Virus record (IMG/VR): IMGVR_UViG_3300014838_000017
Span: 18,349 to 82,348 of that record
DNA: 64,000 nt
Direction: 5' to 3' (one strand)
Source: a virus
This document shows, in pieces, positions 19,780 to 50,797 of the stretch. The notes under the pieces were generated by a model. That model did not search any database and was not told where the DNA came from. It saw nothing but the letters and a program-made list of their open reading frames with translations. Position numbers and translations under genes: made by a program. The first letter of the stretch is position 1. Every line of letters starts with the position of its first letter.

Positions 19780-20323
19780 TTTTATTGATTTGTGTGGCAA
19801 GAAATATCATAAACTAACAGTAATTAAGAGGTTGCCAAACGATAAACACGAACAATCCGTATGGTTATGTAAATGTGATTGTGGGACGGTAAAACCCGTT
19901 AGCGGTGCAAATTTACGAAATGGCCACAGCAAATCATGTGGGTGTGGTAAGAAGGAAGTAACTACAAAACGAAATTTGAAACCACCATATTATTGGATAT
20001 ATTCCATGTTATGTAGAACTGCTAAATATAGGAAGATGGAATGTAACGTAAAATATGAGGATATTCTCGAGTTTGTTAAAATAAACAAATGTCATTATTG
20101 TAACGAACCCGTGGAGTGGAAACAACATGGTATAAGTGAAAATCTTCACAGTTATCAATTGGACCGTATAGATAATTCTATCGGATATACAAAAGATAAT
20201 TGTGTGGTGTGCTGTAAAGTATGCAATCGTGTTAAGAGCAATTATTTTACTTATCGTGAAATGTTGAAGTTAGGAAATATAATAAAAGATATAAACGAAA
20301 GTCGAGCATATGATAACTCTTAA
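19661..20323 (+). CDS. HNH-type homing endonuclease (true start uncertain)
   Basis: IDLCGKKYHKLTV...WLCKCDCG...SKSCGC module, CHYC, and LDRIDNSIGYTKDNCVVCCKVCNRVK. Confidence 0.8.
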   Translation: MNYENKNDFATNVTINSTKIESNIVKCKDIKGKHWWTAGNFIDLCGKKYHKLTVIKRLPNDKHEQSVWLCKCDCGTVKPVSGANLRNGHSKSCGCGKKEVTTKRNLKPPYYWIYSMLCRTAKYRKMECNVKYEDILEFVKINKCHYCNEPVEWKQHGISENLHSYQLDRIDNSIGYTKDNCVVCCKVCNRVKSNYFTYREMLKLGNIIKDINESRAYDNS

Positions 20324-20391
20324 ATTACGTATGTGAAATTTAAGAACGCCGGTAGACAAGAGGTTGAAGATGTAGACGTGGAACCTATAAA

Positions 20392-21951: not shown

Positions 21952-22116
21952 AATAGAGTTTGGTTCTTATATCGTAATCAAGATTATATATGCCATGTAA
22001 TACGTAAAATGTCAATAAATTATTGTTTATTAGGGTATTTATAATTGTAATTGACTACCTAATATACATATCAATGTATTAAATGTATGTCGTAACCCTA
22101 TGAAAGACAACTACTT

Positions 22117-28783: not shown

Positions 28784-28796
28784 GATACTTATAGAT

Positions 28797-31139
28797 ATGC
28801 CACAAGCAGACTTTCAACCTACGTGGGCATTAATAGCCCGACCAACCGGATACTCTACTGGACCATCAGTTGGTAAATCGGAATTGTTGCTTAATGCAAA
28901 TTCTACTGAATTGTATCATAGGTTCTCACCATACTCAAATTATTCTCAGAATGGAGGGTTGCTTAATTGGGGAGATCAGCCATTTTATTATGTCTATGTT
29001 GACCAAGCCAAGAATTTTCCAAATAATCGTGCGGGACAAAGCCAAGTATTTCCGCTTCAAGATTCAATCATTGATGTTCAGAGAGTAACCAAATTTCTTG
29101 CTTCGGGAAATGGAATTACATTCATGGCTACTCAGTTGCTTCTACAAACTGGAAATGCATTTGATGAAACTCGGATATACAATCCAACATCTCCGATTGT
29201 TGCTGCTGGAATGGGATTGACTTTTAATGCGGTTCGTCCAGAACGTTTTCTTGATATATCTAGTCTTTCTGGATTGGCTACAAGTTTGTTGGGTGGGGCT
29301 GGAGCACTTCTTGCTGGTGGATCGGTGGTAAATGCCCCCGCAAGCACTACGGGAACAGGAGCATTGCCGACCCGAAACCAATCGACCGATGGTAAAGGAT
29401 TGCTTCGTGGTGGTGATGCCAATAAGGGATTAGCCAATTTCAAATCTAAATGGAATCCATCGCAAGGTGGAACCAACTCATTCATGTCGGCAGTTGCTAG
29501 TATTGCATCGTCAATGTTTAGTAACTTTATTCCTTCTAGACAGACGGGGATTCAATACCGTAGCGATGAAGGTTCATATGGATTAATGTTGGCGGCTGCT
29601 TCTCCACAATTGGATTCTTTGGATTCTTCCGGAAATCCGATTGCATTTGGCCAATTATGGGTTGCGGGAGGAAAAGGAATGCGTAAGCAGGGACAATATC
29701 CTAATAAACCAACCAGACTATTTGTTCAAGTTCAAAATGGTAAAGTAATTTCAAATCTTGTAAGTGCTGCAGGAGGTTTGAGTGTATATGCTTCAGGATT
29801 GGGGACCGTTGGATATTCCATTACTCCAAGCACTAATGTTACTAAGCCTGGGTATCGCTATGGTGATTCGATGGGAACATTATTCATAAATAATAATGGA
29901 TACATGGGGTCAGATATAATGTATCAATACAAATATTATATTGATCCTACACAAGCATTCCCAACCAAAGACCCAGAATCAACCATAGCAGATTCTGTTG
30001 ATAAAATGGGAGGTAATGCTGGAACCATCCAGAAAAACTTGAATAACATTCTCAAGGCTAGTGGAGGTAAGACATATACCACAGTAAACCCCGATGGAGT
30101 TATTTTAAGAACCCCGTCGGTTAATTACAATTATGATCGTCTGTCGTCTAAGTCGAAGTCCACGCCTATAAATCAATATATTCTCGGGTCTTTGTCCTCA
30201 TATAGAAATTCAGGGGTGCGAATGGTTAGTGATGATTTAGTTTCTAATGTGAATCAATCGATGGGACTCCCAACGTCATTCAAATCGGATAGAATAAATA
30301 CATTTAATGTGTTGGATAGTTCGGCTAAGGGTACTACGTGGAACCCATTTAGTGATGATTTGGTAGCATTGTATTTTTACGATGTTGTAAATGACAAATA
30401 TATTCCGTTCCGTGCAATTATTAGTGGTATTGGGGAAAGCGGAAATGCATCGTGGGATGAAATGGCATTTATTGGGAGGGCCGATAAAGTTTATTCATAT
30501 GGAGGATTCAATCGCAATTTTAATTTTACGATTAACATTGTCATTAACAGTATTGCGGAACTAGCTCCAACTTGGCAGAGAATTAACTACATGATGACTG
30601 CATATAAGCCTGCTAATTATACCCGAAAGGCAAGTTCTACGGGCGGTGATTTGGTATATGACCGATTTATGGTACCACCAATGTTTATGTTTACGTTGGG
30701 AGACTTATATCGTGACCAACCTATACTTATTCAATCTGTGGCTATGACTATTCCTGATGGTGCGTCGTGGGAGACTTTAAATCAAGAGAATCAAGGAAGC
30801 ACATGGGCATACATGGCTAATACGATTAAAGCTTCGGGAGCAAAGTTCGGTCAAGTTCCAAGAGAAATACAACTTGCGTTTACTATGATTTTTCTTGAGA
30901 AGGAACGTGCGGTTGTTGGTGGAGCAAATTTTGGTCATGCACCTAGAACGGAGGACTTTAACAACTTCAACTACGACACCGCAGTGCCAGAGACGTTTAA
31001 CGCATGGAACGTAAACTATGTAGTTAATATTCCAAACTTGACTACACAGGATACTAAAAAAACCTTGGCAAATGGGTTTCAAACACCATCGGGAGCATCT
31101 GTAATAAATCAAGCAATCGTTCCTACTAATTTGTTCTAA
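28797..31139 (+). CDS. Baseplate / tail-tube initiator-like protein
   Basis: Start MPQADF follows TACTTATA; C-terminal domain IPFRA...W....FIGRADKVYSYGGFNR...PPMFMFTLGDLY; lies after the TMP. Confidence 0.6.
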   Translation: MPQADFQPTWALIARPTGYSTGPSVGKSELLLNANSTELYHRFSPYSNYSQNGGLLNWGDQPFYYVYVDQAKNFPNNRAGQSQVFPLQDSIIDVQRVTKFLASGNGITFMATQLLLQTGNAFDETRIYNPTSPIVAAGMGLTFNAVRPERFLDISSLSGLATSLLGGAGALLAGGSVVNAPASTTGTGALPTRNQSTDGKGLLRGGDANKGLANFKSKWNPSQGGTNSFMSAVASIASSMFSNFIPSRQTGIQYRSDEGSYGLMLAAASPQLDSLDSSGNPIAFGQLWVAGGKGMRKQGQYPNKPTRLFVQVQNGKVISNLVSAAGGLSVYASGLGTVGYSITPSTNVTKPGYRYGDSMGTLFINNNGYMGSDIMYQYKYYIDPTQAFPTKDPESTIADSVDKMGGNAGTIQKNLNNILKASGGKTYTTVNPDGVILRTPSVNYNYDRLSSKSKSTPINQYILGSLSSYRNSGVRMVSDDLVSNVNQSMGLPTSFKSDRINTFNVLDSSAKGTTWNPFSDDLVALYFYDVVNDKYIPFRAIISGIGESGNASWDEMAFIGRADKVYSYGGFNRNFNFTINIVINSIAELAPTWQRINYMMTAYKPANYTRKASSTGGDLVYDRFMVPPMFMFTLGDLYRDQPILIQSVAMTIPDGASWETLNQENQGSTWAYMANTIKASGAKFGQVPREIQLAFTMIFLEKERAVVGGANFGHAPRTEDFNNFNYDTAVPETFNAWNVNYVVNIPNLTTQDTKKTLANGFQTPSGASVINQAIVPTNLF

Positions 31140-31467: not shown

Positions 31468-32334
31468 ATGTATAATGTGTTATGGGACGAAAAGCATTAC
31501 ATAGAACCGAATATGAACTCCGAGAACAAAAACGAATCCGTGATAAACGTTATTACCAACGACACCACTATGACATTCTCGAAAGAAGAATGCGAAGATA
31601 CTGGAAATTGGACAAAAAATTGTCCTAAATGTGGGATGAAACAGGTATATTCTTCGTGGGATTCATTAAGATTCGCTATTCGGAAACATACCATATGTAA
31701 TAAATGCCGTGCAAATAAACTAAAAACACGCCCCACCTCTGACAAATGGAAACGAATATGTCCCGCTTGTCAAAAAGAAATTTTGTATAAGTCTGTCAAA
31801 AGTTATTTGCTTTGTGTTAGAACTAAGACAAAATGTCGGAAATGTGGTAGTGCAGAAATAGTAAAACATAGGGATACATCATTTTTTAAAACACAAGAAT
31901 ATCGGAAAAAAATGAGTGAAATTTTAAAAGTTAAACGTAAAACGAATAGCTATGGAGATAGTTTTAAGAAAAAATGTCGTATAAATAGAGCGAAAAGTGC
32001 ATTGTTGGGAGTTCAAAACAAGCCAAATTATAATAAAAATGCGTGTTTATTTATTGATGCTATAAATAAGAAATTCGGGTGGAATTTGCAACATGCTGAA
32101 AGTGGGGGGGAGAAGGTCGTGGAAGGATTTTTTCTGGATGGGTATGATGATGGAAGGAATATTGTTTTTGAGTATGATGAGCCTAAACATAATACATTGT
32201 CGCATGAAAAACGAGACCGAATAAAAGAAAAAGTAGTGATAAAGAAAATAAGTCCTTGGAAATTTATTCGATTTAGTGAAAAATACAATAAATTGTATGA
32301 TATTATAAACGGGGAGGAAATTATATGGCAGTAA
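31468..32334 (+). CDS. Zn-ribbon plus PD-(D/E)XK (Vsr-like) putative homing endonuclease (true start uncertain)
   Basis: Repeated CPxC/CxxC modules and QHAESGGE...FLDGYD...VFEYDEPKH. Confidence 0.75.
   Translation: MYNVLWDEKHYIEPNMNSENKNESVINVITNDTTMTFSKEECEDTGNWTKNCPKCGMKQVYSSWDSLRFAIRKHTICNKCRANKLKTRPTSDKWKRICPACQKEILYKSVKSYLLCVRTKTKCRKCGSAEIVKHRDTSFFKTQEYRKKMSEILKVKRKTNSYGDSFKKKCRINRAKSALLGVQNKPNYNKNACLFIDAINKKFGWNLQHAESGGEKVVEGFFLDGYDDGRNIVFEYDEPKHNTLSHEKRDRIKEKVVIKKISPWKFIRFSEKYNKLYDIINGEEIIWQ
31482..31628 (+). CDS. Basic leader peptide (48 aa), copy 2; not in the ORF track
   Basis: MGRKALHRTEYELREQKRIRDKRYYQRHHYDILERRMRRYWKLDKKLS, following TATGTATA at 31467. Confidence 0.75.
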   Translation: MGRKALHRTEYELREQKRIRDKRYYQRHHYDILERRMRRYWKLDKKLS

Positions 32335-34808
32335 CAAATAATTCTCCAAATCCTGGTAGTGGAGGAGACCCATCGGTAGTTATACCTTGGGAGCCGTGCA
32401 ACTTCCCAATAGCTTTGCAAGATGAATTAAATCGTCGTAAAAAGAATCGAAGTCTTCGTTATGTTCAATCCACGCAAGGAAACTGGGATAGTCAAAATGG
32501 TGATTGGTCAAAATATCGGGGTCCGATGGTTCCGTGGGTTCGTCTGTGTTCAAATAGCAAAGGAAAACGAGGAACGACTGGTAAAGAAGGGTTCGTTCTG
32601 TTTGGTGGTAAAGGATTCTACACGGATTATGGATTCACTGCCGCAAAAAATAACCCATCGGTTATTGGATATGTTCCCAATGGACAGAATGCTACGCATA
32701 CTATTGATAATGATATTAATGAACAGTATCCCATTCACGTTCCCGCTCCTGAGATTGAAAAGATTAGTGTAAGCATTCAGAAGGAACTCTATCGTCGGGT
32801 TGAAATCGAGTGGGTGTGTTTTTCTAAAAAGCAGTTGGAATACATGACCCCATACTTCCTAGTTCCGGGAATATCAGCAATTATGGAGTGGGGATGGAAT
32901 CATTACAATCCAGTGTCATTGATAGATTTGTCTGACACGGGGACACTGCAAGATTACTTCAATAACCCATATTCTCTCTACACCAATAACATCATTAAGT
33001 CTAGAGGAAATTATGATGTTATTTTTGGAATTGTGACAAACTTTGGATGGACGGTTGACGGAAACAAGTTCCGATGCAAAACCGAAATCACTTCCAAAGA
33101 TCGTATCTATTCTGGGTTAATCGTGGATTCTACGGTTACAGAGAAATCATCAACTGGTGAGGACGCCGAGACTAAGGATAAGCCGTTTGACAGTCTGACT
33201 CAATTCATTGATAAGTCACTCGACCTGTTTCGTAATGTAGTCACTCAAACACCAGATTCTATATCGGACCTTTCGGCTTTATGTTCGTATATTCGAGCGG
33301 CACACCCAACTAATGCAAACGAATATTTGTATGGTGTATTTACGGGTCGAGACCCGAAGGATTTAAAGAACAAATTTGCGAAGGGTGCCAACACAAATTA
33401 TGATTTTGATTGTTTGAATAAGAACTCGGAATTATGGGTTAACCTTGGACTTGTCATTGAAGTATTAAACTTCCACGCAAAGTTGAAAGCTACCAAGGGA
33501 AAAGAAATGTTTCGAGTAGATATTGATGACGTGGTTGTTAGTGCCCACCCCAATATGATTTCAAGTGATGGGTCCATTTGTTTGATTCCAAATTGGGAAT
33601 CTCCACATTATTTCTATGGAAAATATGGCATTCGTGAGGCTATACATAATGATAAGTCGGGTATTGGGCTTCCTCTTAATCCTCCATCGAGCACTAATGG
33701 GCCTATTTCGTTTCCATCAAAACATGCAGACGCAATAAAATCTAAGCAGGCAGCAGATTGGAGATTAGGTAGAATATGTGGACAATTTAATAAAGCGTAT
33801 AGGGATGATATTGACCAAATTATTAATGCGGTTCGTTATGAAAATGGCGTCCCGGCGGGAACTTGCTGCTTTCCATTCAAGAAACCTACCCAAGGACTAA
33901 ATAACAATCCATATCCCCCCCATTTCTCTGGATATTTGAGAAATATTTATGTGAGCGTGTCTTACTTGAAAGCATTGTTGGATAATAGCTCGGATATTAC
34001 AACGTATCTTCAACTCGTTGAGAAATTAGCATCTGATATTAATGGCGCATGTGGAACATTTTGGGACTTGAGATTGGTAAGTGCTCCCGGCGATGCGAAA
34101 ATATCCAATACAGATGCTGCCCCCATGAAACTTGTAGACTACAAGTTCATGTACTTTTCCAATCGTGGAAAAGTATGGTCGTTTGATTATTTTGATGCTG
34201 ACAGTTTGTTGCAGGGTATTGGATTCAACCCGACATTGAGCAATGCTCAAGCAATTCGAACCATTTATTCCCCAACGAACAATGTTGATAAGAATATAGT
34301 CATAACGAATGGTGACAATGAACTTCTTGACTATGGTGCTGAAGATAGGTTAAACTTGGGACAAAATGTGGGAAATACGTCATCGTCAACTTCGACTGAA
34401 GACACCAGTGGGTTTGACGACACGATGCGGGCATTACAACAAATCGAACCTCCGACTGATGGGTCGTACCAAATAACATCGAATGGAACCGTTTATCGTC
34501 TTGCGCTTCCCGCCAGTGATATTCAGAAACTTTTACTTGATGATAGCGATGAGGATAACAATCCTAAATACACTGGAATCATGCCGGGTATTCAGGCGAC
34601 ATTTACCGTTCAAGGTATTGGAGGTCTTCGAACTTTCATGATGTTTTTGTGCAAAAACTTGGCCGATCCATATTCCGAGAATAATATTGTGTTTAGAATT
34701 GTTAATGTTGAGGAAAATATTGAGCCGGGAAAATGGACCACCACGATAACGGCGGGCGTTATTCCTCTGCGTGGATTTATAAAATCACGCCTTGGAATCT
34801 CGCCTTAA
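32325..34808 (+). CDS. Putative baseplate hub protein
   Basis: 827 aa; PWVRL, YFLVPG...MEWGWN, NYD..FGIVTNF.W and a GIGGLR...W.TTI C-terminus; follows the LysM wedge gene. Confidence 0.6.
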   Translation: MAVTNNSPNPGSGGDPSVVIPWEPCNFPIALQDELNRRKKNRSLRYVQSTQGNWDSQNGDWSKYRGPMVPWVRLCSNSKGKRGTTGKEGFVLFGGKGFYTDYGFTAAKNNPSVIGYVPNGQNATHTIDNDINEQYPIHVPAPEIEKISVSIQKELYRRVEIEWVCFSKKQLEYMTPYFLVPGISAIMEWGWNHYNPVSLIDLSDTGTLQDYFNNPYSLYTNNIIKSRGNYDVIFGIVTNFGWTVDGNKFRCKTEITSKDRIYSGLIVDSTVTEKSSTGEDAETKDKPFDSLTQFIDKSLDLFRNVVTQTPDSISDLSALCSYIRAAHPTNANEYLYGVFTGRDPKDLKNKFAKGANTNYDFDCLNKNSELWVNLGLVIEVLNFHAKLKATKGKEMFRVDIDDVVVSAHPNMISSDGSICLIPNWESPHYFYGKYGIREAIHNDKSGIGLPLNPPSSTNGPISFPSKHADAIKSKQAADWRLGRICGQFNKAYRDDIDQIINAVRYENGVPAGTCCFPFKKPTQGLNNNPYPPHFSGYLRNIYVSVSYLKALLDNSSDITTYLQLVEKLASDINGACGTFWDLRLVSAPGDAKISNTDAAPMKLVDYKFMYFSNRGKVWSFDYFDADSLLQGIGFNPTLSNAQAIRTIYSPTNNVDKNIVITNGDNELLDYGAEDRLNLGQNVGNTSSSTSTEDTSGFDDTMRALQQIEPPTDGSYQITSNGTVYRLALPASDIQKLLLDDSDEDNNPKYTGIMPGIQATFTVQGIGGLRTFMMFLCKNLADPYSENNIVFRIVNVEENIEPGKWTTTITAGVIPLRGFIKSRLGISP

Positions 34809-34846: not shown

Positions 34847-36196
34847 TTGATGATCGAAACACCCACAGACCTCATACGCTTTCAACTTGAAAATCAAGTT
34901 GGAGATTGGATTGTTCACGTCGTTCCCGTAGCAGATATTCATCCTGTCATTTCCACTTCAAGTCTTCTATTCATCCGAAACATTCTAACGGGTAAAACAT
35001 ATTACTATTCTTTTAATCATCCCGATTCCAAACCTTGTAATTTGTTATTCGATGAAATAATTCGCAAATCTTCCAACCGAAAATGGGCACTCGATAAAAA
35101 GGCATTTGACCAAATGTTTCGAGGAGTTTCAAACACACTTGATGCCAATGCGTTGGCGTGGATGTGTGGGGAGGATGTCCTCGAACTGTCAGAATATGAT
35201 ACTCCTGCCCATTATCTTATTCGTAAAAATGCGGCGGGACATGAGCGATTAAATCTTGTCATTCCGTTGATGAAGCACAAGGAAATGTTTGATGATTTGG
35301 CAAATGATTTGAGTGAACTCATAAAAGATTTTTCTCCGGATTCTACATTTACTCGGTTTAATGATCTTATTATAGGGACGTTGGGAGATTTGGAAACACA
35401 GGGAATTTCTGTGGACCCGACTCTTTTTAGAGAACGATATAAACAAGAACCTGAGATCAATAACATGGTGCATAGTCAATATAATGTCTATACATCTACA
35501 GGAAGACCAAGCAACAGTTTTAATGGCGTAAACTATGCGGCACTGAATCAGAGTGATGGCACTAGAAAATGTTTTCGTTCTAGGTATGGGGCTGATGGTT
35601 GTATGGCAGTTCTCGACTATACGAGTTTTCATCCACGTATAGTTAGCCACATGGTTAAACACGAGGTTCCACTCGATGTTGACATTTATGCCTATCTCGC
35701 CAAACTTTACTTCCATAAGAAAGATGTGGATGAGACAGATGTTAAAAATTCTAAATCGTTGACATTCAGACAGTTTTATGGAGGTATTGAAGATAAGTAT
35801 TTGCACATAAAATACTTGGCTAACATTAAGAGTTTTACTGAAGAACAATGGGAGTTATTTAACACCCGAGGATATGTTGAAACACCGTTCTTTAAGCGTA
35901 GGATCACGTCCAAGCACATTTCAGAGCCTAATCCTCCCAAAGTATTCAATTACATTCTTCAAGCCACAGAGGGCGAACTAAGCATTCCAAAGGTAAAGTC
36001 TGTGCTTGCTCATTTGGTAGGCAAACAGACAAAAGCGGTGCTTTACACTTACGATGCTATTCTCTATGACTTTTACAAGCCCGAGGGAATGAAGTTGCTT
36101 CGTGAATTGAAGAGTATAATGAGTTTTGATGGACGCTTTCCAATGAAGGCTTACATAGGTGAAACCTATAATGATATGAAGCTTATCACGTTATAG
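34847..36196 (+). CDS. Compact family A DNA polymerase
   Basis: TSTGRPS, motif A LDYTSFHPRI, motif B KSLTFRQFYG, NYILQATE and motif C YTYDAIL. Confidence 0.85.
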   Translation: MMIETPTDLIRFQLENQVGDWIVHVVPVADIHPVISTSSLLFIRNILTGKTYYYSFNHPDSKPCNLLFDEIIRKSSNRKWALDKKAFDQMFRGVSNTLDANALAWMCGEDVLELSEYDTPAHYLIRKNAAGHERLNLVIPLMKHKEMFDDLANDLSELIKDFSPDSTFTRFNDLIIGTLGDLETQGISVDPTLFRERYKQEPEINNMVHSQYNVYTSTGRPSNSFNGVNYAALNQSDGTRKCFRSRYGADGCMAVLDYTSFHPRIVSHMVKHEVPLDVDIYAYLAKLYFHKKDVDETDVKNSKSLTFRQFYGGIEDKYLHIKYLANIKSFTEEQWELFNTRGYVETPFFKRRITSKHISEPNPPKVFNYILQATEGELSIPKVKSVLAHLVGKQTKAVLYTYDAILYDFYKPEGMKLLRELKSIMSFDGRFPMKAYIGETYNDMKLITL

Positions 36197-41946: not shown

Positions 41947-42296
41947 AAAAGTATAAACTGTTAAGATTCGGACATTGCTATGTTAATAGAGATGGAACCT
42001 TTATTATTGGTCTTGTGGGTGGAAATAAGCGACACGGTTATACTATGTTAGCAAGTCATGCTCATCCGTATGTTTTTTTACAAAACATTAATGTCATGTC
42101 ACGGATAGTTCCTAATGATGGAAATTGGATGGAAATAACGCCCTATCAATATAATGCTATTTCTTCGTATCATGCGGATGGGTACATAGTAAAGCCCTCC
42201 CCGAAGGGAGGGCCATTTGTGATCTCTAAGTTTATCCCTTCCAGTCTTTCGGTGGAACAGAATATTTGTTCCCTACAAATGGTTCCGGAAAACTAA
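41943..42296 (+). CDS. Hypothetical protein
   Basis: ATGA overlap upstream; the 3' end overlaps the convergent gene. Confidence 0.5.
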   Translation: MKKYKLLRFGHCYVNRDGTFIIGLVGGNKRHGYTMLASHAHPYVFLQNINVMSRIVPNDGNWMEITPYQYNAISSYHADGYIVKPSPKGGPFVISKFIPSSLSVEQNICSLQMVPEN

Positions 42297-43155
42297 CTTG
42301 CTTTTCATTTCCAAGGGGCACACCCATTTCAACAAGTGACTCACGGCTGGCGTAATAGATGTTGGTTGTAAGTGCGAGAATACCTTTTTCGAATTCAACC
42401 TCAATGACTCGGCTTTCTTTCGATTCTCCGTAACGGGTGCCCATATCGAATCCTTGGGGTTTTACATGAGAACGAAGCATGTTAGTAGATTGTCCTCCAG
42501 CCATCGTTCTACCTCTTGATGCACCTTTGGTTGGAATGTGGTCGCATGAATATTTTTCTGGACCGGAACTCCGTTCACGTTCTACATCTCCAAATCCGAT
42601 ACTGTTATCGGCAGAATCCATTGTGGGATCACTATTACATGTGCTTCCGTATAGTGTGCAGGTTGGAGGGCCGTAAGGATTCCACGTTGGAGTCCACGGG
42701 TTAATGGGATAGTCGTGATGATGGTGATGATGCTCTTCCCTCACGATGATTGGAGTAGGAGGCAAGGGCTTAATTTTCTCATTGAAGAGACGAACGCCGA
42801 TTACACCGACATTTTTTTCCGATCCGTCTTCTTTGGAAGCAGCATAAGAACCGCCTTTGTAATCGAATAGGAACCTGGCAACCTTTTCGTCAGAAATACG
42901 GAATCCGTCAATTTTGACAGAATTGTTTCCATTGATGACATAACCGTTTCCATTTTCATCGGCTTTTTTGCCGTTGAGAATGTCGAGACCATCCACGGAA
43001 CAGACCGCAAGAATGCGCTGCCATGAATTATTTTTGATGCGGATTGAGTATTCGGCTCCCTTGTGTGCTTCGACAAAAAGTTTGCCGTCATGTGGGAATT
43101 GCCTGAGAGGTTTATCGTTGACCAGGATGTCAACTGTGTAGTTTTCGTTTGTCAT
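42232..43155 (-). CDS. Hypothetical protein with a His run
   Basis: 307 aa; YSIRIKN...SVDGLDIL.G...GYVI...IDGFR...NVGVIGV domain and HHHHHH. Confidence 0.7.
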   Translation of the reverse strand: MTNENYTVDILVNDKPLRQFPHDGKLFVEAHKGAEYSIRIKNNSWQRILAVCSVDGLDILNGKKADENGNGYVINGNNSVKIDGFRISDEKVARFLFDYKGGSYAASKEDGSEKNVGVIGVRLFNEKIKPLPPTPIIVREEHHHHHHDYPINPWTPTWNPYGPPTCTLYGSTCNSDPTMDSADNSIGFGDVERERSSGPEKYSCDHIPTKGASRGRTMAGGQSTNMLRSHVKPQGFDMGTRYGESKESRVIEVEFEKGILALTTNIYYASRESLVEMGVPLGNEKQVSFPEPFVGNKYSVPPKDWKG

Positions 43156-43335
43156 ATACTGTTTACTCCTATTGGAGATTTTTAAAATCTAACGTTATGT
43201 TAGACGTTAATAATATATCAGGTTGCAAATGAAATACAACTTATTATATTTAAAAGAAAAGTTATTATAAGTTGCCGTGGTATTTTTTATAGCGTAACAT
43301 TCACGTAACAATAAGAGCACAAAGATGAATAATAT

Positions 43336-44178
43336 ATGGAACTAAATCAAGGTGAAGTAAACAACCTCAAGAAGTTTGGCACTGCATTTCAAGCCAAATG
43401 CCTAGCAGCAATGCTTTCCGACCGTGCATTTTTGGAACGTGTCATTGACATCGTATCTCCCGATTTCTTCGAAACTGATGCCCATAAATGGGTTGTCAAG
43501 TTTATCGCATCGTATTTTCCGACGTATCATGACACCCCTACAATGGCTGTGTTTGCATGTGAAATTCAAAAGATTCCCGATGCTGTATTGAATATGGCAG
43601 TGAAGGAACAAGTAAAAATTTGTTACCTAGAAGTATCTACCGCAAAAGACCTAACTTACGTGAAGGAACAGTTTTTGTCATTCTGCCGCAACCAGAAGTT
43701 GAAAAATGCTATTTGGGCCTCGGAAGCACTTTTGAAGCAAGGTAACTACGAAGGTATTTGGAATGCCATTAACGAGGCATCCAAAGCAGGAATGGAACGT
43801 GATCTAGGTCATGAGTATCTCGCTGATATGGACAAGCGTATGTCCGCAATGGCCCGTGAGACAGTGAAGACCAACTGGCCGATTATTGATACCCATCTTG
43901 ATGGCGGGCTTGGAAAAGGTGAACTTGGGTTTGTTGTTGCGCCAGCGGGCGCAGGTAAGTGCGTTGGGCCAAATACCGAAATTGAAATCAAGTATATGGA
44001 TACCGGAATTCCGGTCGTTGGTAACTCAGGTAAGGAATATATCATTTGGATTAAACCATTTGAGAAATTTGATTTCGATGGAAAAATATTATATGGGTGG
44101 CAAATCGATAATATTTTCTTTGAACTTGAGAAAATGAAGTCGCAACTACTGGGACGGGAAAATATACAGAAAAAGTGA
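43336..44178 (+). CDS. Replicative helicase (gp41/DnaB) fragment 1 fused to split-intein-1 N-part
   Basis: GLGKGELGFVVAPAGAGK (Walker A) is followed directly by CVGPNTEI (intein block A, Cys1 at 43960); stop 72 aa later. Confidence 0.9.
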   Translation: MELNQGEVNNLKKFGTAFQAKCLAAMLSDRAFLERVIDIVSPDFFETDAHKWVVKFIASYFPTYHDTPTMAVFACEIQKIPDAVLNMAVKEQVKICYLEVSTAKDLTYVKEQFLSFCRNQKLKNAIWASEALLKQGNYEGIWNAINEASKAGMERDLGHEYLADMDKRMSAMARETVKTNWPIIDTHLDGGLGKGELGFVVAPAGAGKCVGPNTEIEIKYMDTGIPVVGNSGKEYIIWIKPFEKFDFDGKILYGWQIDNIFFELEKMKSQLLGRENIQKK

Positions 44179-44297
44179 AGTTTTTGTGTCTGTGTTAATA
44201 TGTATAAGAGATCATGAAAGTAAAAATGTTATCCGAATTGCTTCATGGGAATTTTCTCTGATAAATTGCGATGGTTATCAATCATATACAAATAAGG

Positions 44298-45221
44298 ATG
44301 AATAAGTTAAAATGTCAAATTTGTGGATTTGAGGGAATGAATTTAGTAACTCACTTGAAGTTTAAGCATTTTCAGTCGGTGGACGATTATCGAAAGAAAT
44401 ATGGACAGCGCCAAGTTTATCTTCACTCCGACGAATTGCGGAATAAAATTTCAAATACACTTAAAAAATTAAATGAAAATATAGAATTTAGGCGAGAAAA
44501 TTCCAATCGTCAGAAAAATGGCGCTTCGTGTTTAACAATTAAGTATTGGACGAATAGGGGGGTCTCCGAAGAAAATGCTCGAATAAAAATATCCGAATTA
44601 CAAAAAAATAATTGTCGGAAACATTTGGTCAATGGTGATTTACAGGAATGTTCACATTTTTCTACCAAATATTGGATAAAGCGAGGATGCACTGAACAGG
44701 AAGCGATTAAAAATGTGTATAACATACAGAGTGAACTATCATCCAAATCTTCTAAATTTCAGGGACATATTCATACCGATGAAGAAAAAGAAAGAATTTC
44801 ATCGTCTCTCAAAAAGATGATTGATGTTGTGGGAAGGGGAAAATGGGCACGCCATTTTGGGGAGTTTAATGGTCGTAGTAAAGCTGAAATCGAGTTTTAC
44901 AATTACATAAAGGAAAACATAGATTTGTCAGTTCAAGCAAATGTTTCCGTCGGAAATTATATTGTAGATGTTATTAAAACTCGGAAAATAATTGAATTTT
45001 ATGGTGATTTTTGGCACGCCAATCCATTGATTTTTTCTAAATGTAATAAGTTGTATCCACATGGCCGACGTGTTATGATGGCGGAAGATATATGGAAAAA
45101 GGATAATGCTCGTATATCTTGGCTGAGAAGTGAGGGGTATGAAGTTTTAATTGTATGGGAAACGGAGTGGAAAAAGCAAAAAGAAGTGTGTATTGAAAAG
45201 ATTAGGAAATATCTGTTATGA
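44298..45221 (+). CDS. Free-standing Vsr/DUF559-like homing endonuclease inside split intein 1
   Basis: C2H2 finger, KYW..RG repeats and YIVD...IIEFYGDFWHANP...D..R...GYEVLIVWE. Confidence 0.8.
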   Translation: MNKLKCQICGFEGMNLVTHLKFKHFQSVDDYRKKYGQRQVYLHSDELRNKISNTLKKLNENIEFRRENSNRQKNGASCLTIKYWTNRGVSEENARIKISELQKNNCRKHLVNGDLQECSHFSTKYWIKRGCTEQEAIKNVYNIQSELSSKSSKFQGHIHTDEEKERISSSLKKMIDVVGRGKWARHFGEFNGRSKAEIEFYNYIKENIDLSVQANVSVGNYIVDVIKTRKIIEFYGDFWHANPLIFSKCNKLYPHGRRVMMAEDIWKKDNARISWLRSEGYEVLIVWETEWKKQKEVCIEKIRKYLL

Positions 45222-46357
45222 TTTATAAGCGTGTTACGACCGAGAAAATAAAGATGGTAGAATTGTTTTCCCGCCTTGGCGTGGAGAACAAAGAAAATGC
45301 CAAGATTTCCGTCCCATTTCCGTTGGGAGTGAATACTCCATACGGATACAAAAATATTATCACGGTATTTAGGACCGAAAAGCAGCGGGCAGTGACGACC
45401 TATTTCAAAAATAATAAGACATTGAAAACTTCCAATGATCATTTATTGAAAGTAAATGGCGATTGGAAGAAAGTCCGGGACATTGTAAAATCCGATATTA
45501 TCGAAACTGAAGTGGGAACGACCTCTATAAAGATGCAACATATTGGGAAGTTGGAAATTTTATATGATATTTCGGTGGAAGATGTACATTGTTATTATTC
45601 GAACGGTATAGTATCTCATAATTCGTGGGTATTAGCTCATCTTGGGGCCGAGGCTATGCTGCAAGGTAAGAACGTTATGCATTTCACGATGGAGTTGAAT
45701 GCGGAGTATGTTGGCCTTCGCTACGACTCTATCTTTTCGGGAGTAGCATTTCAAGACGTTCGGAAGAATCGACCACTTGTTCAGAAGAAAGTTGATGAAA
45801 TCAAGGCCAAGGGCTGTGGGAAACTCTTCATTAAATATTTTCCTACCAAGACTACATCGCCCGCTTCATTGAAGATGCATATTGAACGATTGCAGTTGAT
45901 CACTGGTGTCAAAATTGATTTCGTGGTCGTTGATTATGCCGACTTACTTCGTCCATTCATGCAAGATCGCAACTCCAACAGTTATAGCATTGGGGGCGAT
46001 ATTTATGGTGAACTTCGTGGTGTTATGGGAGAACTCCAAGTTCCTGGTTGGTCGGCGAGTCAAAGTAATAGATGTCTAACTTTAGACACGAAGGTTATAG
46101 TAAAACGTAATAATTTACATGATATGGAAGATATAATAGGGAATATCAAAGTAGGTGATCAACTACTTACGCATTGTGGTTATAAATATGTATCTCGTGT
46201 ATTTCCAATACAGACACAACCGGTGTATAAAATTTGTTTAAAAAGCGGTAAAACTATAACATGTTCGGCGAATCATGAATTCCCATTAAAATATGGAATT
46301 TTAAGATCAATTAGTGATGGTCTCTCTGTTGGAGATAAATTATTTACTAAAAAGTGA
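45218..46357 (+). CDS. Helicase fragment 2: intein-1 C-part, 150-aa helicase core, intein-2 N-part
   Basis: YDISVEDVHCYYSNGIVSHN|SWVL (junction 45622/45623), HFTMEL, VVVDYADLL, SASQSNR|CLTLDT (Cys1 at 46073) and TCSANHEF. Confidence 0.92.
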   Translation: MIYKRVTTEKIKMVELFSRLGVENKENAKISVPFPLGVNTPYGYKNIITVFRTEKQRAVTTYFKNNKTLKTSNDHLLKVNGDWKKVRDIVKSDIIETEVGTTSIKMQHIGKLEILYDISVEDVHCYYSNGIVSHNSWVLAHLGAEAMLQGKNVMHFTMELNAEYVGLRYDSIFSGVAFQDVRKNRPLVQKKVDEIKAKGCGKLFIKYFPTKTTSPASLKMHIERLQLITGVKIDFVVVDYADLLRPFMQDRNSNSYSIGGDIYGELRGVMGELQVPGWSASQSNRCLTLDTKVIVKRNNLHDMEDIIGNIKVGDQLLTHCGYKYVSRVFPIQTQPVYKICLKSGKTITCSANHEFPLKYGILRSISDGLSVGDKLFTKK

Positions 46358-46390
46358 TATTTTGGGTTACACTCCATATTTATTATATAT

Positions 46391-47602
46391 ATGAAAGAAC
46401 TTTATTATAAGGATAGAAATCATTTTTTAAGTCAAAAATTTGCAATTTTATTTGAAAAAACTCTAAGTCAACATTCGTTAATGCAAATTGATAATATTAT
46501 TAAGAGATTTAACAAAAAGTATCTTAATAATATTAAAAAAGACATGGTAATTAATTTACTAAAATATAATGTTGATGGTGATTGGGTTGATCGATTATTG
46601 AAAAGTGAAAAATTTAAAAAAGATGGATTCTCGTGGGATTCTTGTCAATTACGATATGGAAATGTAGGCGAAAAAATATTTCATGATAGAGTAGAAATGA
46701 TAAGGCATACTAGAGAAAAATATACGGAAGAACAATGGAAAAAAATATGTGTTAGTAAACGTTCCAATCTTGGTCTGAAGGGTTATATTTTAAAATATGG
46801 TGAGACGGATGGAACTCAGAGATGGAATTCTTATTTGAAGAAATGGAAAATTGGAATTAATAAGAAGAAAAAATATGGGTGGAATAGTGGATGTACGCTT
46901 GAAAATTTTCAAAGATTATATGGGGTGCTAGAGGGATATAATATATGGAAAAATAAATCTATAAAACATAAAAAATCATTATCCTTGGATGGATATATTG
47001 AAAAATATGGGATGTACAATGGAACTAAAATGTGGAAAGAGGCGTGTAATAATAGAGCCGTAACATCATTATCAGCATTTATTAAACGGTATGGTAAAAT
47101 CGACGGTGCATTACGACATAAAATTCTTTGCCATCGGCTTTCCTATATTAGTTCGGAGGCATATTATATCGAAAAATATGGAGAAAAACTGGGAACTGAA
47201 AAATATAAAGAAAAAATAATAAGAGCGTCCGAACATAAATTTGATGGATATAGTAAAATATCGCAGGAATTATTTTGGGAAATATATAATAGACTATATG
47301 ATCAATTAAAATTGGAATGTCATTTTCATAGTTTGGATTATGAAGTTTATTTTTTTGTAAATAAAGAGTGGGCTAAAATAATAAATGTCGATTTCAAATG
47401 TAGGAATGCTATAATTGAATTCGATGGTACATATTGGCATCAATTGCCCTTTCATGTTAAACGAGACCCTCTACGAGATCAATATTTGATTGAACGTAAG
47501 TATAAAATTTTGAGAGTAAAAGAAGCCGATTATAATAATAATAAGCAACGAATGATTGATATGTGTGTTAAGTTTGTAAAGGAAAATTATGAAAACCCAT
47601 AA
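46391..47602 (+). CDS. Free-standing PD-(D/E)XK homing endonuclease with KYG..G repeats inside split intein 2
   Basis: Repeated YI.KYG...G...W, then SKISQELFW and VDF...IIEFDGTYWH...D..RD. Confidence 0.8.
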   Translation: MKELYYKDRNHFLSQKFAILFEKTLSQHSLMQIDNIIKRFNKKYLNNIKKDMVINLLKYNVDGDWVDRLLKSEKFKKDGFSWDSCQLRYGNVGEKIFHDRVEMIRHTREKYTEEQWKKICVSKRSNLGLKGYILKYGETDGTQRWNSYLKKWKIGINKKKKYGWNSGCTLENFQRLYGVLEGYNIWKNKSIKHKKSLSLDGYIEKYGMYNGTKMWKEACNNRAVTSLSAFIKRYGKIDGALRHKILCHRLSYISSEAYYIEKYGEKLGTEKYKEKIIRASEHKFDGYSKISQELFWEIYNRLYDQLKLECHFHSLDYEVYFFVNKEWAKIINVDFKCRNAIIEFDGTYWHQLPFHVKRDPLRDQYLIERKYKILRVKEADYNNNKQRMIDMCVKFVKENYENP

Positions 47603-48074
47603 ATTGAACCCAATGGAATTCTCAATGGATGAAATTATAAGCATTGACTGTATCGGAGATGCTCCTACGGTGGATATTACGGTAGAAGATGTTCATATGT
47701 TTTATGCCAATGATATTTATACGCATAATAGTGTTCATGAAAGTGACATTATTGAAGCTGGCGACGTAGCTGATAGTTATCAGAAAATTATGATCGGTGA
47801 TTTTATTATGTCTTTGTCCCGTAAAAAGGAAGATAAGATGGCGGGCACTGGACGCATGTATATTATGAAGAATCGGTTTGGTCCCGATGGAACTTGGTAT
47901 CCATTGTCATTCGATGCATCGTGTGGAAAAATCGACCTCTACGAACAAAACTCAGTCGAAGCGAATGAAATAATTAGTCGAGTGAAGACCGTTGAAGACC
48001 AACTTAAAGAAATTTTTAAAAAGTCTTGGAACGAGAATAAGAAAAAACAGAGCGGCGATAACAGTGGTTCCTAA
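47589..48074 (+). CDS. Helicase fragment 3: intein-2 C-part plus helicase C-terminus
   Basis: DEIISID...TVDITVEDVHMFYANDIYTHN|SVHESD (junction 47729/47730), ADSYQK..DFIMSLSR and KNRFGPDG. Confidence 0.92.
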   Translation: MKTHKLNPMEFSMDEIISIDCIGDAPTVDITVEDVHMFYANDIYTHNSVHESDIIEAGDVADSYQKIMIGDFIMSLSRKKEDKMAGTGRMYIMKNRFGPDGTWYPLSFDASCGKIDLYEQNSVEANEIISRVKTVEDQLKEIFKKSWNENKKKQSGDNSGS

Positions 48075-48175
48075 ATAGCAGGTTCATAAAAATAAACGCT
48101 TGTTGACCGAGAAATTTACTTTAGTAGTTACATATTAAAATTATCTACTTATACTCACCTACAAAAATATAGAAT

Positions 48176-50797
48176 ATGGAAACGATAACGAAGTTCGATG
48201 ACGTAAAGAAGCAAACCACCGAGGAATATTTTCAAAACAATCAATTTAGCATAGATGCTTTTAAAAAGAAATATGCTATAAATCCTGAAGAGACGTATGT
48301 CCAAGCAGTTAAACGAGTTTGCGATTTTGTCGCATCGGTTGAATCTACGCAGGAGCTTCGGGACTATTGGAGTGCTCGGTGGTTCAGTGAAATCTACAAC
48401 GATTGGTGGCACCCCGCTGGTTCTATTATGCAGGGGGCTGGGAGTGGAAGAAAGATTAGTTTAGCTAACTGTACTCATATATCCCTTGGAGGTTTACGTG
48501 ATTCGGAAGATTGGGATAATCTCGAATCCATTATTAAAAATACTTCTTATACGACCGCAAAATGTGCTGCCTATAGACAAGGTTTAGGTATTGATTTTTC
48601 TAAGTTGCGTCCAAATGGTTGTAAAGTTTTAAATTCAGCCAACCAAAGTACTGGCACGGTACATTGGATGGAATATGAAGATAAAATTGGTTATTTTGTT
48701 GGTCAAAAAGGACGTATTCCGGCAATGTTATTCAGTCTTTCCTGTGATCATCCGGACGTGGAGGAGTTTATTCAAATCAAGTCTGACTACACAAAAATTC
48801 AGAACGCAAATATCAGTGTTCAATGCACCGAGAAGTTTTACAAGGCGGTGGATAATGATGAAGATTGGGAACTACGGTTTGAAGTTCCCGGCATTAAGAA
48901 AGGTGATCGTATTTATGTTGATGTCCATAGCATTGATATGAGTTGCACTCGTGAGAAGGAAAGCGGTCGTTATTATCGCATTGCTACCCATGATAAGAAA
49001 AGAGAAGTGTTCACCAAGATAGTTAAAGCTCGTACGTTGATGGAGTTGATTGCCAAGAATATGCATACCAACGCAGAACCTGGTATTCAAAATATTGACA
49101 TTGCTCGTAAATATAGTAATTCGGATGCTGTTTATGACGAAAATGATGAGTATGATTCTCGAATTATTGGGACAAATGCGTGTTCCGAACAGTATCTTTC
49201 TCGGGAATCTCTCTGTGTGCTCGCATCACTAAACTGCGGACGTTTTTCGGCGAAGCGGGAATTATTTGCCGTGCAACTGGATAAAATTGGACACTCGGTT
49301 AATCGTTTTCTTGATGACGTAAATGAATGTGAATTGGTATATCAAACTTATGCCACTCCTCATCAGGCACTTGCTATTCGTAAATTGCGCCGAACTGGCG
49401 CAGGAGTTACTAACATTGCGGCTTGGTTATTCAAGTGTAATGTGGCGTATGGAACCAAAGAGGGTAATGATGCTATTGAAGAGTTTATCAAGTGGTATAA
49501 CTACTGGCTGTATGTTAGCACAGAAGAGCTTGGTCTTGAAAAGGGGGACTTTGGTCTATTCAATAAGGAAAAATGGCGTAATGCCCCGTTTGTAGCTCGT
49601 ATTATCAAAGAGTCTGAGAAGATGAACTCTGAATATAAGGTTCCGATCATCAAAGGCACTCATGCTCGCAATGTGACAGTCAGTTCGATTGCCCCGACTG
49701 GTACATTATCATTGATGTTCCGTGATTTCGTTCTTTCTTATGGGATCGAACCCGCATTCTTCATGTATTTCTGGAAACGCACTCGTATGGTGGGTAAGTA
49801 TGAATATTACTTCTGCGTGCCACGGGTTGTTCGTGATGCATTCACTGAGGCAGGCATTCCTATTCCAATGACTTCCGATACTGTTAAAGATACGTGGGAT
49901 GGAAAAATTGGAGCACCGATTGCCAAGTTCATCGAAGAGCATAGGAGTAAGTTTAATTTTAAGGAATCGCCTGATATTAATCCGTTGGATAAACTCAACC
50001 TTATGGCGCAAGTCATGAAGTGGGTGGATAGTTCTATTTCGGTCACTTATATGTTGCCGATTGGATCGACGTGGAAGGAAGTTTATAATTTCATTTTGGA
50101 AGCTCATAAGCGAGAAGTTAAAAGTATTGCCGCTTTCCCCGATAAGAAAATGTATGGTATTGTATCCAACATGCCATTTCGAGGGCTTGCTTTCAAGTTG
50201 AAGGATGAGAATATTGTTATTGGGCATCAGAACTTTTCCGATGATGAATTGAAGGAATTGAATCTATCTCGTGAGAATATTACGAATCCAAAGAATACTT
50301 ATCCCAAGCGTTTGCCATCCATTGATGCAGATATTTATGTGGTCAGCGTCAAGGGACAGAAGTTTGTTATTGTCGTTGGTGTTCAGAATGGACAGCCATA
50401 TGAAATCTTCGGAGGTCACGTTAATGGGTTTGGATTCAAGTTTGCTTATAAAAAAGGTAAACTGACCAAAGTCAAACAAGGGCAGTATGCTCTTGAAATT
50501 GATGATATTTGCATTGATGACTTCTCGAAACAGTTTACTCCGACGGAGCAAATTCTATTCCGTATGGCTTCGATGGCAATGCGCCACGGTGTCCCAGTAC
50601 AGTTTGTAGTTGAACAACTTCAGAAGGGAACGAATGATATTACATCAATGGGTGCCGCCGCCGCACGTTGCTTGAAGAAATATATTAAGGATGGTACCGC
50701 AATAAATGGCCAAAAATGCCCATCGTGTGGTAAAGAACTCGTATATTTAGAGGGGTGCTGTTCGTGCCCATCATGTGGTTGGTCTAGATGTAGTTGA
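48176..50797 (+). CDS. nrdJ: Class II (adenosylcobalamin-dependent) ribonucleotide reductase
   Basis: SLANC, GIDFSKLRP, AEPG, TNACSE, SIAPTGTLS, GIEP, DSSISVT, a TSCPD-like region and a C-terminal Cys cluster; no nrdB nearby. Confidence 0.88.
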   Translation: METITKFDDVKKQTTEEYFQNNQFSIDAFKKKYAINPEETYVQAVKRVCDFVASVESTQELRDYWSARWFSEIYNDWWHPAGSIMQGAGSGRKISLANCTHISLGGLRDSEDWDNLESIIKNTSYTTAKCAAYRQGLGIDFSKLRPNGCKVLNSANQSTGTVHWMEYEDKIGYFVGQKGRIPAMLFSLSCDHPDVEEFIQIKSDYTKIQNANISVQCTEKFYKAVDNDEDWELRFEVPGIKKGDRIYVDVHSIDMSCTREKESGRYYRIATHDKKREVFTKIVKARTLMELIAKNMHTNAEPGIQNIDIARKYSNSDAVYDENDEYDSRIIGTNACSEQYLSRESLCVLASLNCGRFSAKRELFAVQLDKIGHSVNRFLDDVNECELVYQTYATPHQALAIRKLRRTGAGVTNIAAWLFKCNVAYGTKEGNDAIEEFIKWYNYWLYVSTEELGLEKGDFGLFNKEKWRNAPFVARIIKESEKMNSEYKVPIIKGTHARNVTVSSIAPTGTLSLMFRDFVLSYGIEPAFFMYFWKRTRMVGKYEYYFCVPRVVRDAFTEAGIPIPMTSDTVKDTWDGKIGAPIAKFIEEHRSKFNFKESPDINPLDKLNLMAQVMKWVDSSISVTYMLPIGSTWKEVYNFILEAHKREVKSIAAFPDKKMYGIVSNMPFRGLAFKLKDENIVIGHQNFSDDELKELNLSRENITNPKNTYPKRLPSIDADIYVVSVKGQKFVIVVGVQNGQPYEIFGGHVNGFGFKFAYKKGKLTKVKQGQYALEIDDICIDDFSKQFTPTEQILFRMASMAMRHGVPVQFVVEQLQKGTNDITSMGAAAARCLKKYIKDGTAINGQKCPSCGKELVYLEGCCSCPSCGWSRCS

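Follow-up and report, generated by a model that had tools for sequence, protein, structure and literature searches.

A phage replicative helicase encoded in three pieces and predicted to be joined by two split inteins

The DNA analysed here, referred to as the window, is a stretch of 64,000 nucleotides (nt) from the IMG/VR virus record IMGVR_UViG_3300014838_000017 (record positions 18,349-82,348), and the locus under study lies at window positions 43336-48074. In this locus, which belongs to a large uncultured phage of peat or permafrost, a DnaB/gp41-type replicative helicase is spread over three separate genes, the two halves of an intein flank each break, and a free-standing endonuclease gene occupies each gap. 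We put the probability at roughly 0.85 that two trans-splicing reactions assemble a helicase of 472 amino acids (aa) from the three polypeptides. The exteins align to intact helicases without gaps, the splicing residues are invariant, the proportion of nonsynonymous differences (pN) is far below that of synonymous differences (pS), the first gap is reproduced in independent data, and no intron was detected; taken together, these results argue that the gene is real and used.

Locus anatomy and the helicase exteins

Five open reading frames (ORFs) make up the locus, all on the + strand, at 43336-44178 (280 aa), 44271-45221 (316 aa), 45218-46357 (379 aa), 46391-47602 (403 aa) and 47589-48074 (161 aa). 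The first, third and fifth were cut at the junction motifs, which are GAGK/C and SHN/S at site 1 and SQSNR/C and THN/S at site 2. The obtained layout is ExtN-IntN1, IntC1-ExtM-IntN2 and IntC2-ExtC, where Ext denotes a helicase extein piece and Int an intein piece, with one endonuclease gene (HEG1 and HEG2) per gap. The segments are listed below with the evidence that identifies them.

43336..43959, + strand: ExtN (208 aa), N-terminal domain of the helicase, ending at the Walker A lysine (GAGK); phrog_19 and homologue alignment
43960..44178, + strand: IntN1 (72 aa and stop), N-piece of intein 1; Cys1 and conserved alignment rows
44271..45221, + strand: HEG1 (316 aa), free-standing Vsr-like/EDxHD gene; DUF559 and phrog_22677; 4-nt overlap of its stop with the start of the next ORF
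45218..45622, + strand: IntC1 (135 aa), C-piece of intein 1; PT-HINT, A4 profile against solved inteins, terminal His-Asn
45623..46072, + strand: ExtM (150 aa), RecA-like core, which begins at the Walker A serine and ends at motif H4 (SQSNR); phrog_19 and 8dtp
46073..46357, + strand: IntN2 (94 aa and stop), N-piece of intein 2; Cys1, block B SxxH, gp41-1 match
46391..47602, + strand: HEG2 (403 aa), free-standing Vsr-like/EDxHD gene; DUF559 and phrog_22677; 14-nt overlap with the next ORF
47589..47729, + strand: IntC2 (47 aa), C-piece of intein 2 with a His-Asn end; gp41-1 match and conserved alignment rows
47730..48074, + strand: ExtC (114 aa and stop), beginning at the +1 serine; phrog_19 and homologue alignment

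Insertion site 1 falls in Walker A (the P-loop) and insertion site 2 in motif H4. The spacers ahead of the endonuclease genes measure 92 nt (HEG1) and 33 nt (HEG2). Each of the three helicase ORFs has a frame of its own (start modulo 3 = 1, 2 and 0), and simple stop read-through would therefore be unable to fuse the pieces. An earlier note on this DNA had described the same arrangement; re-cutting the ORFs returned exactly its coordinates, junction motifs and piece sizes, and the extein sum of 208+150+114 = 472 aa was re-derived identically. Its account of a middle polypeptide with an intein half at both ends also holds, as the residues of IntC1 and IntN2 are complete and conserved. The N-terminus of the third piece carries a conserved MKxHxLNP motif (alignment A1, 37 rows), which favours the start at 47589 over a shorter gene call of 153 aa.

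The exteins matched the PHROG profile phrog_19 (DnaB-like helicase) consecutively, with ExtN covering profile positions 163-366, ExtM 367-507 and ExtC 511-610. ExtM further resembled residues 203-358 of the T4-type helicase structure 8dtp, and the Pfam model DnaB_C scored 26.6 bits on the middle piece alone, marginally under its cut-off of 27. The features of a superfamily 4 (SF4) DnaB/gp41-type helicase, namely the N-terminal domain, RecA-like core, Walker A and motif H4, are all present and colinear with the profiles. The three exteins were then joined in silico, and the 472-aa product was aligned to eight intact homologues (463-473 aa), which carry the source name 'replicative DNA helicase'. 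Both junctions were free of gaps. The closest intact homologue, P0127 (472 aa), is 88% identical over ExtN, 91% over ExtM and 88% over ExtC. The +1 serine of site 2 in the window is replaced by glycine in more distant intact homologues.

Selection was estimated from Nei-Gojobori counts against the closest DNA relatives; synonymous divergence is at or near saturation, which makes the ratios rough. The pN values were well under the pS values in the exteins, the intein halves and both endonuclease genes, as illustrated by ExtM (0.087/0.737), IntN1 (0.071/0.630), IntC2 (0.190/0.483) and HEG2 (0.320/0.636).

Parts of the stretch were detected in 20 public runs from 15 studies, among peat, permafrost and freshwater metagenomes; runs X14-X20, which hold small word shares, were excluded as habitat evidence. 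Contigs from two other studies, at least 99% identical and with no insertions, deletions or joints, span the stop of the first fragment and the overlap of HEG1 with the middle piece. Contigs from two RNA libraries cover HEG1, the boundary between HEG1 and the middle piece, and IntC1, which is weak evidence of transcription; no spliced RNA form was seen among them. No GenBank phage matched the locus in a megablast search. A promoter and terminator scan found 28 and 2 sites, compared with 23.4±4.8 and 2.6±1.7 in shuffled sequence, so that no excess can be claimed.

The two inteins and the endonuclease genes

The intein residues were examined in alignments of the first piece (A2, 49 rows), the doubly flanked middle piece (A3, 29 rows) and the third piece (A1), and a profile was built for intein 1 (A4). 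At the Walker A site, Cys1 of IntN1 (C209) was invariant in 49/49 rows of A2, and the block B histidine H75 and the terminal H134 and N135 of IntC1 were invariant in 29/29 rows of A3. The +1 residue after IntC1 (S136) was serine in at least 90% of the A3 rows and threonine in the rest. IntN1 holds only the first ~12 core residues together with a conserved insertion of ~55 aa, in which W238, P241, G254 and W255 are likewise invariant across A2. This insertion stays on the N-piece and accounts for its length of 72 aa; in relatives, IntN1 measures 55-72 aa. Six naturally contiguous relatives (182-205 aa), which carry the insertion as well, align to IntN1 and then to IntC1, and the break falls at about residue 65-70. 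The conservation suggests that IntN1 would complement IntC1.

The remainder of the intein 1 core is located on the C-piece. IntC1 contains an alpha1-like segment (IKMVELF), a block B-like [TS]SxxH motif, block F and the terminal His-Asn, and positions 31-135 of the 137-position Pfam model PT-HINT fall within it. Pfam Intein_splicing scored 42.4 bits on the middle ORF against a cut-off of 35.8. When the A4 profile was compared with the sequences of solved structures, a comparison that maps blocks and does not show the fold, VidaL (6vgv) was the best match (E 2.8e-8), followed by gp41-1 and CatC (6dsl, 6e-6). Extrapolated from these profile alignments, VidaL residue 25 and CatC residue 1 fall just past the alpha1-like segment. 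Since that segment lies downstream of the break, in IntC1, the break of intein 1 is placed upstream of alpha1 and block B and would represent an S1-like, VidaL-like atypical split.

A class 3 mechanism, as in M. smegmatis DnaBi1, was considered for intein 1 by analogy and was set aside: Cys1 is invariant, and the conserved cysteine of block F probably occupies the His-x position rather than F:4. We take an aspartate of intein 1 to stand at the usual block F position, which would presumably make it a class 1 intein.

At the motif H4 site, IntN2 matched the gp41-1 intein 6qaz at positions 17-90 (E 4.4e-13) and IntC2 matched it at positions 87-128 (E 2.2e-8). Cys1 (C286) and the block B histidine (H353) of IntN2 were invariant in 29/29 rows of A3, H46 and N47 of IntC2 in 37/37 rows of A1, and the +1 serine (S48) was present in at least 90%. 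With pieces of 94 and 47 aa, the break of intein 2 is canonical and resembles that of gp41-1; canonical split sizes are ~100 aa for IntN and ~35-50 aa for IntC (PMC13014065). Intein 2 is therefore described as a canonically split, gp41-1-like intein with class-1-type residues, for which trans-splicing is predicted. The split intein gp41-8 presumably sits at the same H4 site.

The genes in the gaps encode related proteins. Both HEG1 and HEG2 matched phrog_22677, and both passed the DUF559 cut-off of 20.6 bits narrowly (22.4 and 20.8 bits). The two are only 25% identical across an 84-aa nuclease core. The earlier claim that a different endonuclease lies in each gap stands as far as each gap has its own divergent, free-standing gene, but the two belong to one shared Vsr-like family. 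A profile of ten rows (A5), comprising HEG1, HEG2 and relatives from other loci, best matched 3r3p, the catalytic domain of I-Bth0305I (E 4.4e-5), and then Vsr endonucleases (0.02). Searched by itself against the PDB sequences, HEG2 had no match at E up to 1, and the link to 3r3p emerged with the ten-row profile only. In A5, D233, E242 and D278 never vary, and at least 90% of the rows have H249.

HEG1 homologues occupy the same gap in the related viral loci L004-L007, L036, L040, L043 and L051, and HEG2 homologues do so in L028, L036 and L040, where the overlap again measures 14 nt. The guanine-cytosine content of the bin 46001-48000, which contains HEG2 and IntC2, is 0.31, as opposed to ~0.38-0.42 in most bins; only bin 20001-22000 is similarly low (0.305). 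The low value over HEG2 fits a foreign cassette. HEG1 and HEG2 would be active homing enzymes that spread the cassettes; indirect backing for this comes from the scatter of the cassettes over the extein tree described below and from pairs of homologues whose inteins are more alike than their exteins.

Further observations concern these genes. HEG1 homologues begin at a methionine that matches the internal ATG at 44298, ahead of which an AAGGA-like stretch is found, and the true start of HEG1 may thus lie 27 nt downstream of the annotated one. At window position 44723 in HEG1, one RNA-library contig (X19, depth 6) has T where the DNA has C, possibly a strain difference or an error. In P0327 (818 aa), P0349 (764 aa), P0080 (433 aa) and P0118 (397 aa), the middle piece extends tens to hundreds of residues beyond IntN2. 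P0080 has matches to DUF559/MTES_1575, and the tail of P0118 is similar to the endonucleases' repeat region. Such extended pieces may be IntN2-endonuclease fusions.

Distribution of the split states and genome context

Homologues of the middle ORF were classified by split state, using the best 120 of 1972 matches with E up to 0.001. The doubly flanked middle piece was found in 30/120, with the window's own included, and 75/120 had IntC1, ExtM and ExtC, with only site 1 split. Rarer states were site 2 split with no intein 1 (3/120), contiguous intein 1 with split intein 2 (7/120), split intein 1 with contiguous intein 2 (2/120) and contiguous intein 1 alone (3/120). In a search among representatives of clusters at 50% identity (best 150 of 21,443 with E up to 0.001), IntC1 formed the N-terminus and IntN2 the C-terminus in 11/150.

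Among the first 24 viral loci, five were split at site 1 only, one at site 2 only, and 18 were uninterrupted. Further viral loci, the best 80 of 587 retrieved with an alignment of IntC2-ExtC pieces, were distributed as follows.

Both sites split, both endonuclease genes present: 3/80 (L036, L040, L041)
Both sites split, endonuclease gene in gap 1 only: 1/80 (L043)
Both sites split, no endonuclease gene, spacers of 170 and 21 nt: 1/80 (L039)
Contiguous intein 1 with split intein 2: 3/80 (L034, L035, L037)
Only site 2 split: 7/80 (L028, L031-L033, L042, L044, L045)
Only site 1 split: 4/80 (L051, L060, L084, L100)
Distant loci bearing intein-2 halves: 3/80 (L047, L054, L057)
Uninterrupted: 58/80

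L036 and L040 keep the 14-nt overlap between HEG2 and the third piece even though their exteins are only ~40-45% identical to those of the window. Judged from the sequences compared, the three-piece layout is common in environmental phages.

A FastTree phylogeny of the middle extein was built from 177 rows and 146 columns, with five rows of unclear state excluded. The three-piece state required 19 changes on this tree, at least 12 of them forced by well-supported branches; the shuffled mean was 27.8, and 0/500 shuffles gave a value as low. The nearest neighbour of the window on the tree is the intein-free P0127. As the tree is short, with many forks unresolved, and homing may co-convert flanking sequence, it reads as repeated gain and loss of the cassettes and as no more than this. 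The similarities of the intein pieces agree with such turnover: IntC1 of the window is 84% identical to that of P0002, whereas the exteins are 61% identical, and the best counterpart of its IntN2 (77%) comes from P0042, a protein without intein 1.

Related intein pieces were also observed outside the helicase gene. An additional IntC1-like stretch lies 3-4 kb upstream of the helicase in five loci (L028:1366-1587, L030:4357-4587, L036:852-1220, L045:3227-3451 and L051:1899-2252), which points to a second gene there with a related intein; unlike these loci, the window has no second IntC1-like stretch upstream. In L034, the end of a gene downstream of the helicase (8494-9618) resembles an intein N-piece followed by a stop, and this neighbour may be fractured as well.

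The IMG/VR record comprises 82,348 bases and is ~22% complete (CheckV). The only phrog_19 matches on it are the three helicase pieces, and its four Intein_splicing matches are all located in the helicase locus. Upstream, the neighbouring genes encode SSB, a UvsX-like recombinase and a FEN-type exonuclease; downstream lies ribonucleotide reductase, and the order exonuclease-helicase-reductase recurs in relatives. Several relatives lie on contigs of ~300-360 kb, and the helicase carriers are therefore probably very large phages. An identical copy of the window's middle piece is found on a longer contig of 194,012 bases.

Further ORFs of the window were noted. On the + strand, a 449-aa ORF at 34847-36196 covers only a part of the family A DNA polymerase profiles, namely positions 104-221 of 381 in Pfam DNA_pol_A, at a score under the cut-off, and positions 957-1235 of 1445 in phrog_17. 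The ORFs upstream of it, at 28710-31139 (809 aa) and 32325-34808 (827 aa), gave no Pfam or PHROG match. It is possible that this polymerase, too, is split or has diverged. Directly upstream of the helicase, at 42232-43155 on the - strand, lies a 307-aa ORF that contains a run of six histidines and likewise has no Pfam or PHROG match.

Splicing model, alternative explanations and known systems

In the proposed mechanism, the three polypeptides would be translated separately, after which IntN1 would dock to IntC1 and IntN2 to IntC2. Each rebuilt intein would then undergo class-1 splicing through a Cys1 thioester, attack by the +1 serine and asparagine cyclisation, and the outcome would be a seamless 472-aa helicase. 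The ATP site would be formed only once the first ligation is done.

The two inteins probably do not cross-react, because they are cut at different positions of the fold. IntN1 consists of no more than the first strands and the extra module; blocks A and B are on IntN2, blocks B through G on IntC1, and only F and G on IntC2. The cross-pair IntN1+IntC2 would consequently be without block B, and IntN2+IntC1 would have it twice. The net charges are -1 for IntN1, +6 for IntC1, +6 for IntN2 and -7 for IntC2, so the polarity of the two pairs is opposite and both cross-pairs would join like charges. The polarity of IntN2 and IntC2 (N-piece positive, C-piece negative) is the same as that given by Dassa et al. 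for gp41-1 and gp41-8 (PMC2677866).

More tentatively, we consider it possible that the two inteins are a co-evolved natural orthogonal pair, kept apart by combining an S1-type break with a canonical one and by opposite charges. The ~55-aa module of IntN1 might then be a new docking or capture element that lets an N-terminally split intein work in a P-loop. Helicase activation could in that case be timed, by the phage or by the selfish cassettes, since no ATP site would exist before the first ligation.

Several observations weigh against assembly by two trans-splicing reactions. Among the independent contigs listed, none bridges the boundaries of the second gap, and the parts left uncovered are uninformative either way. 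IntN1 matches no Pfam model, and a search of the ESM Atlas with its residues 209-280 returned no usable match. At 72 aa, it is also far longer than the 15-37 aa of natural atypical N-pieces (PMC13014065). IntC1 and IntC2 share 63% identity over their final 19 residues, and the orthogonality set out above is drawn from topology and bulk charge. Lastly, with 22% of the genome on the record, a second, intact helicase may be encoded elsewhere.

The intein halves could instead act as a non-covalent clasp, gathering the pieces of a helicase that functions unspliced. Halves that dock would bring the pieces together with or without splicing, and yet every splicing residue is present and invariant across 29-49 homologues, and an intein fold of ~200 aa would separate the lysine and the serine of Walker A. 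Disruption of the ATPase is deemed likely for P-loop inteins (PMC6195587). We regard a clasp as improbable. Slightly less credible is a decaying relic, with the working helicase supplied by the unsequenced ~78% of the genome or by the host. The incompleteness of the record leaves room for this, given that these three pieces are the only helicase pieces found on it. A relic agrees poorly with exteins that are 88-91% identical to an intact homologue and show no frameshift or internal stop, with the pN far below pS in every segment, and with a layout that is kept in lineages whose exteins are only ~40-45% identical. L039, moreover, retains the three pieces after the loss of both endonuclease genes.

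The earlier note had also raised two explanations at the level of the nucleic acid, and neither withstood the analysis. Vsr-like endonucleases are known in group I introns too (PMC2677866, PMC3239194), and the endonuclease regions could in principle be self-splicing introns that are removed from the RNA. However, Rfam gave no intron match over 43000-48400 at E up to 1, each gap is bordered on both sides by intein halves that are in frame and have the full set of catalytic blocks, and the spacer at site 2 of L039 is only 21 nt. An RNA-library contig runs unspliced across the boundary of HEG1 and the second fragment, and no joints were seen among the contigs listed, although the coverage is thin and DNA carry-over is possible. 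Introns are thus very unlikely. We consider it equally far-fetched that the stops are assembly or sequencing errors, even though the source is a metagenome assembly: the three pieces lie in three frames, the first gap is reproduced by the contigs of two other studies at 99% identity or more and with no insertions or deletions, and the same termini recur in dozens of independent metagenomic proteins. Two trans-splicing reactions therefore remain our preferred explanation of the locus.

The closest known systems are the fractured genes described by Dassa, London, Stoddard, Schueler-Furman and Pietrokovski in 2009 (PMC2677866), which include gp41-1 to gp41-9, NrdJ-1, IMPDH-1 and others, with nine gp41 loci in the single-fracture form. 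There, as in the window, the gene of a phage replication enzyme is broken by a split intein, with a same-strand, free-standing and often Vsr-like endonuclease gene between the halves. The defining arrangement, an in-frame IntN with a stop, a same-strand endonuclease gene after a spacer, and an IntC that shares its frame with the C-terminal portion, occurs twice here. The published loci, as far as the available text describes them, have one fracture each, whereas the window has two in one gene and three polypeptides, and their spacers measure 27-51 nt as opposed to 92 and 33 nt. The same source describes a DnaE-1 with only the C-part of an additional intein, and gp41-8 and gp41-9 at different integration points.

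The encoded endonucleases resemble I-Bth0305I (3r3p), the EDxHD prototype; this family came to light first in fractured genes (PMC3239194). The core is similar, and a repeat-rich N-terminal region precedes a C-terminal nuclease domain in both. The gene of I-Bth0305I lies within a group I intron of recA, whereas HEG1 and HEG2 are free-standing between intein halves and known from their genes alone.

Both insertion points are also known from cellular DnaB proteins, where point b is the P-loop and points a and c lie in motif H4 (PMC6195587, PMC4760082). Some DnaB proteins of Actinobacteria and Cyanobacteria carry inteins at b and a together, in contiguous form, and DnaBi1 and DnaBi2 of M. smegmatis have been studied (same sources). 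The likeness to the window extends to the two motifs that are hit, to the +1 nucleophile of site 1 being the Walker A serine, and to the presence of two inteins in one helicase. The cellular inteins differ in being contiguous and splicing in cis from one polypeptide, and DnaBi1 is described as a class 3 mini-intein whereas intein 1 has Cys1.

Natural atypical inteins break at S1 after beta2 (VidaL, PolB16) or at S2 after alpha1 (AceL TerL, GOS TerL), with IntN sizes of 16 aa for VidaL, 15 for PolB16, 25 for AceL TerL and 30 for Cat (S2) (PMC13014065). Intein 1 is similar in that its break lies near the N-terminus, with block B and most of the fold placed on the C-piece by the alignments. It differs in its 72-aa IntN1 with the ~55-aa insertion, in its host, the P-loop of a helicase, and in being known from sequence alone. 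Intein 1 would thereby join an N-terminally split class with very few natural members, and would bring to it a Cys1/Ser+1 pair and an unusual N-piece.

Three-fragment ligation itself has been engineered with orthogonal split inteins, as in triple-adeno-associated-virus delivery of dystrophin (PMC11271493), a four-domain assembly (PMC11168065) and work reported in the gp41-1 structure preprint (10.1101/546465). In these systems, as in the window, the middle fragment carries the IntC of one pair and the IntN of the other, different split sites are sometimes used, and orthogonality is needed against cyclisation or mis-ligation. The literature searched, mostly open main texts, yielded only such engineered systems and no natural gene that needs two trans-splicing reactions, which does not prove that none has been described. 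The parts and insertion sites were thus already known, while neither the three-piece form as a natural gene nor the S1-like split of intein 1 with its long N-piece seems to have been described. The engineered pairs are man-made from unrelated genes, whereas here a natural pair lies within one gene and is kept by selection. Where engineers pick orthogonal split inteins from unrelated genes, nature would keep such a pair side by side in one essential enzyme, in many phage lineages, and the origin and fixation of split inteins become directly comparable inside one gene family.

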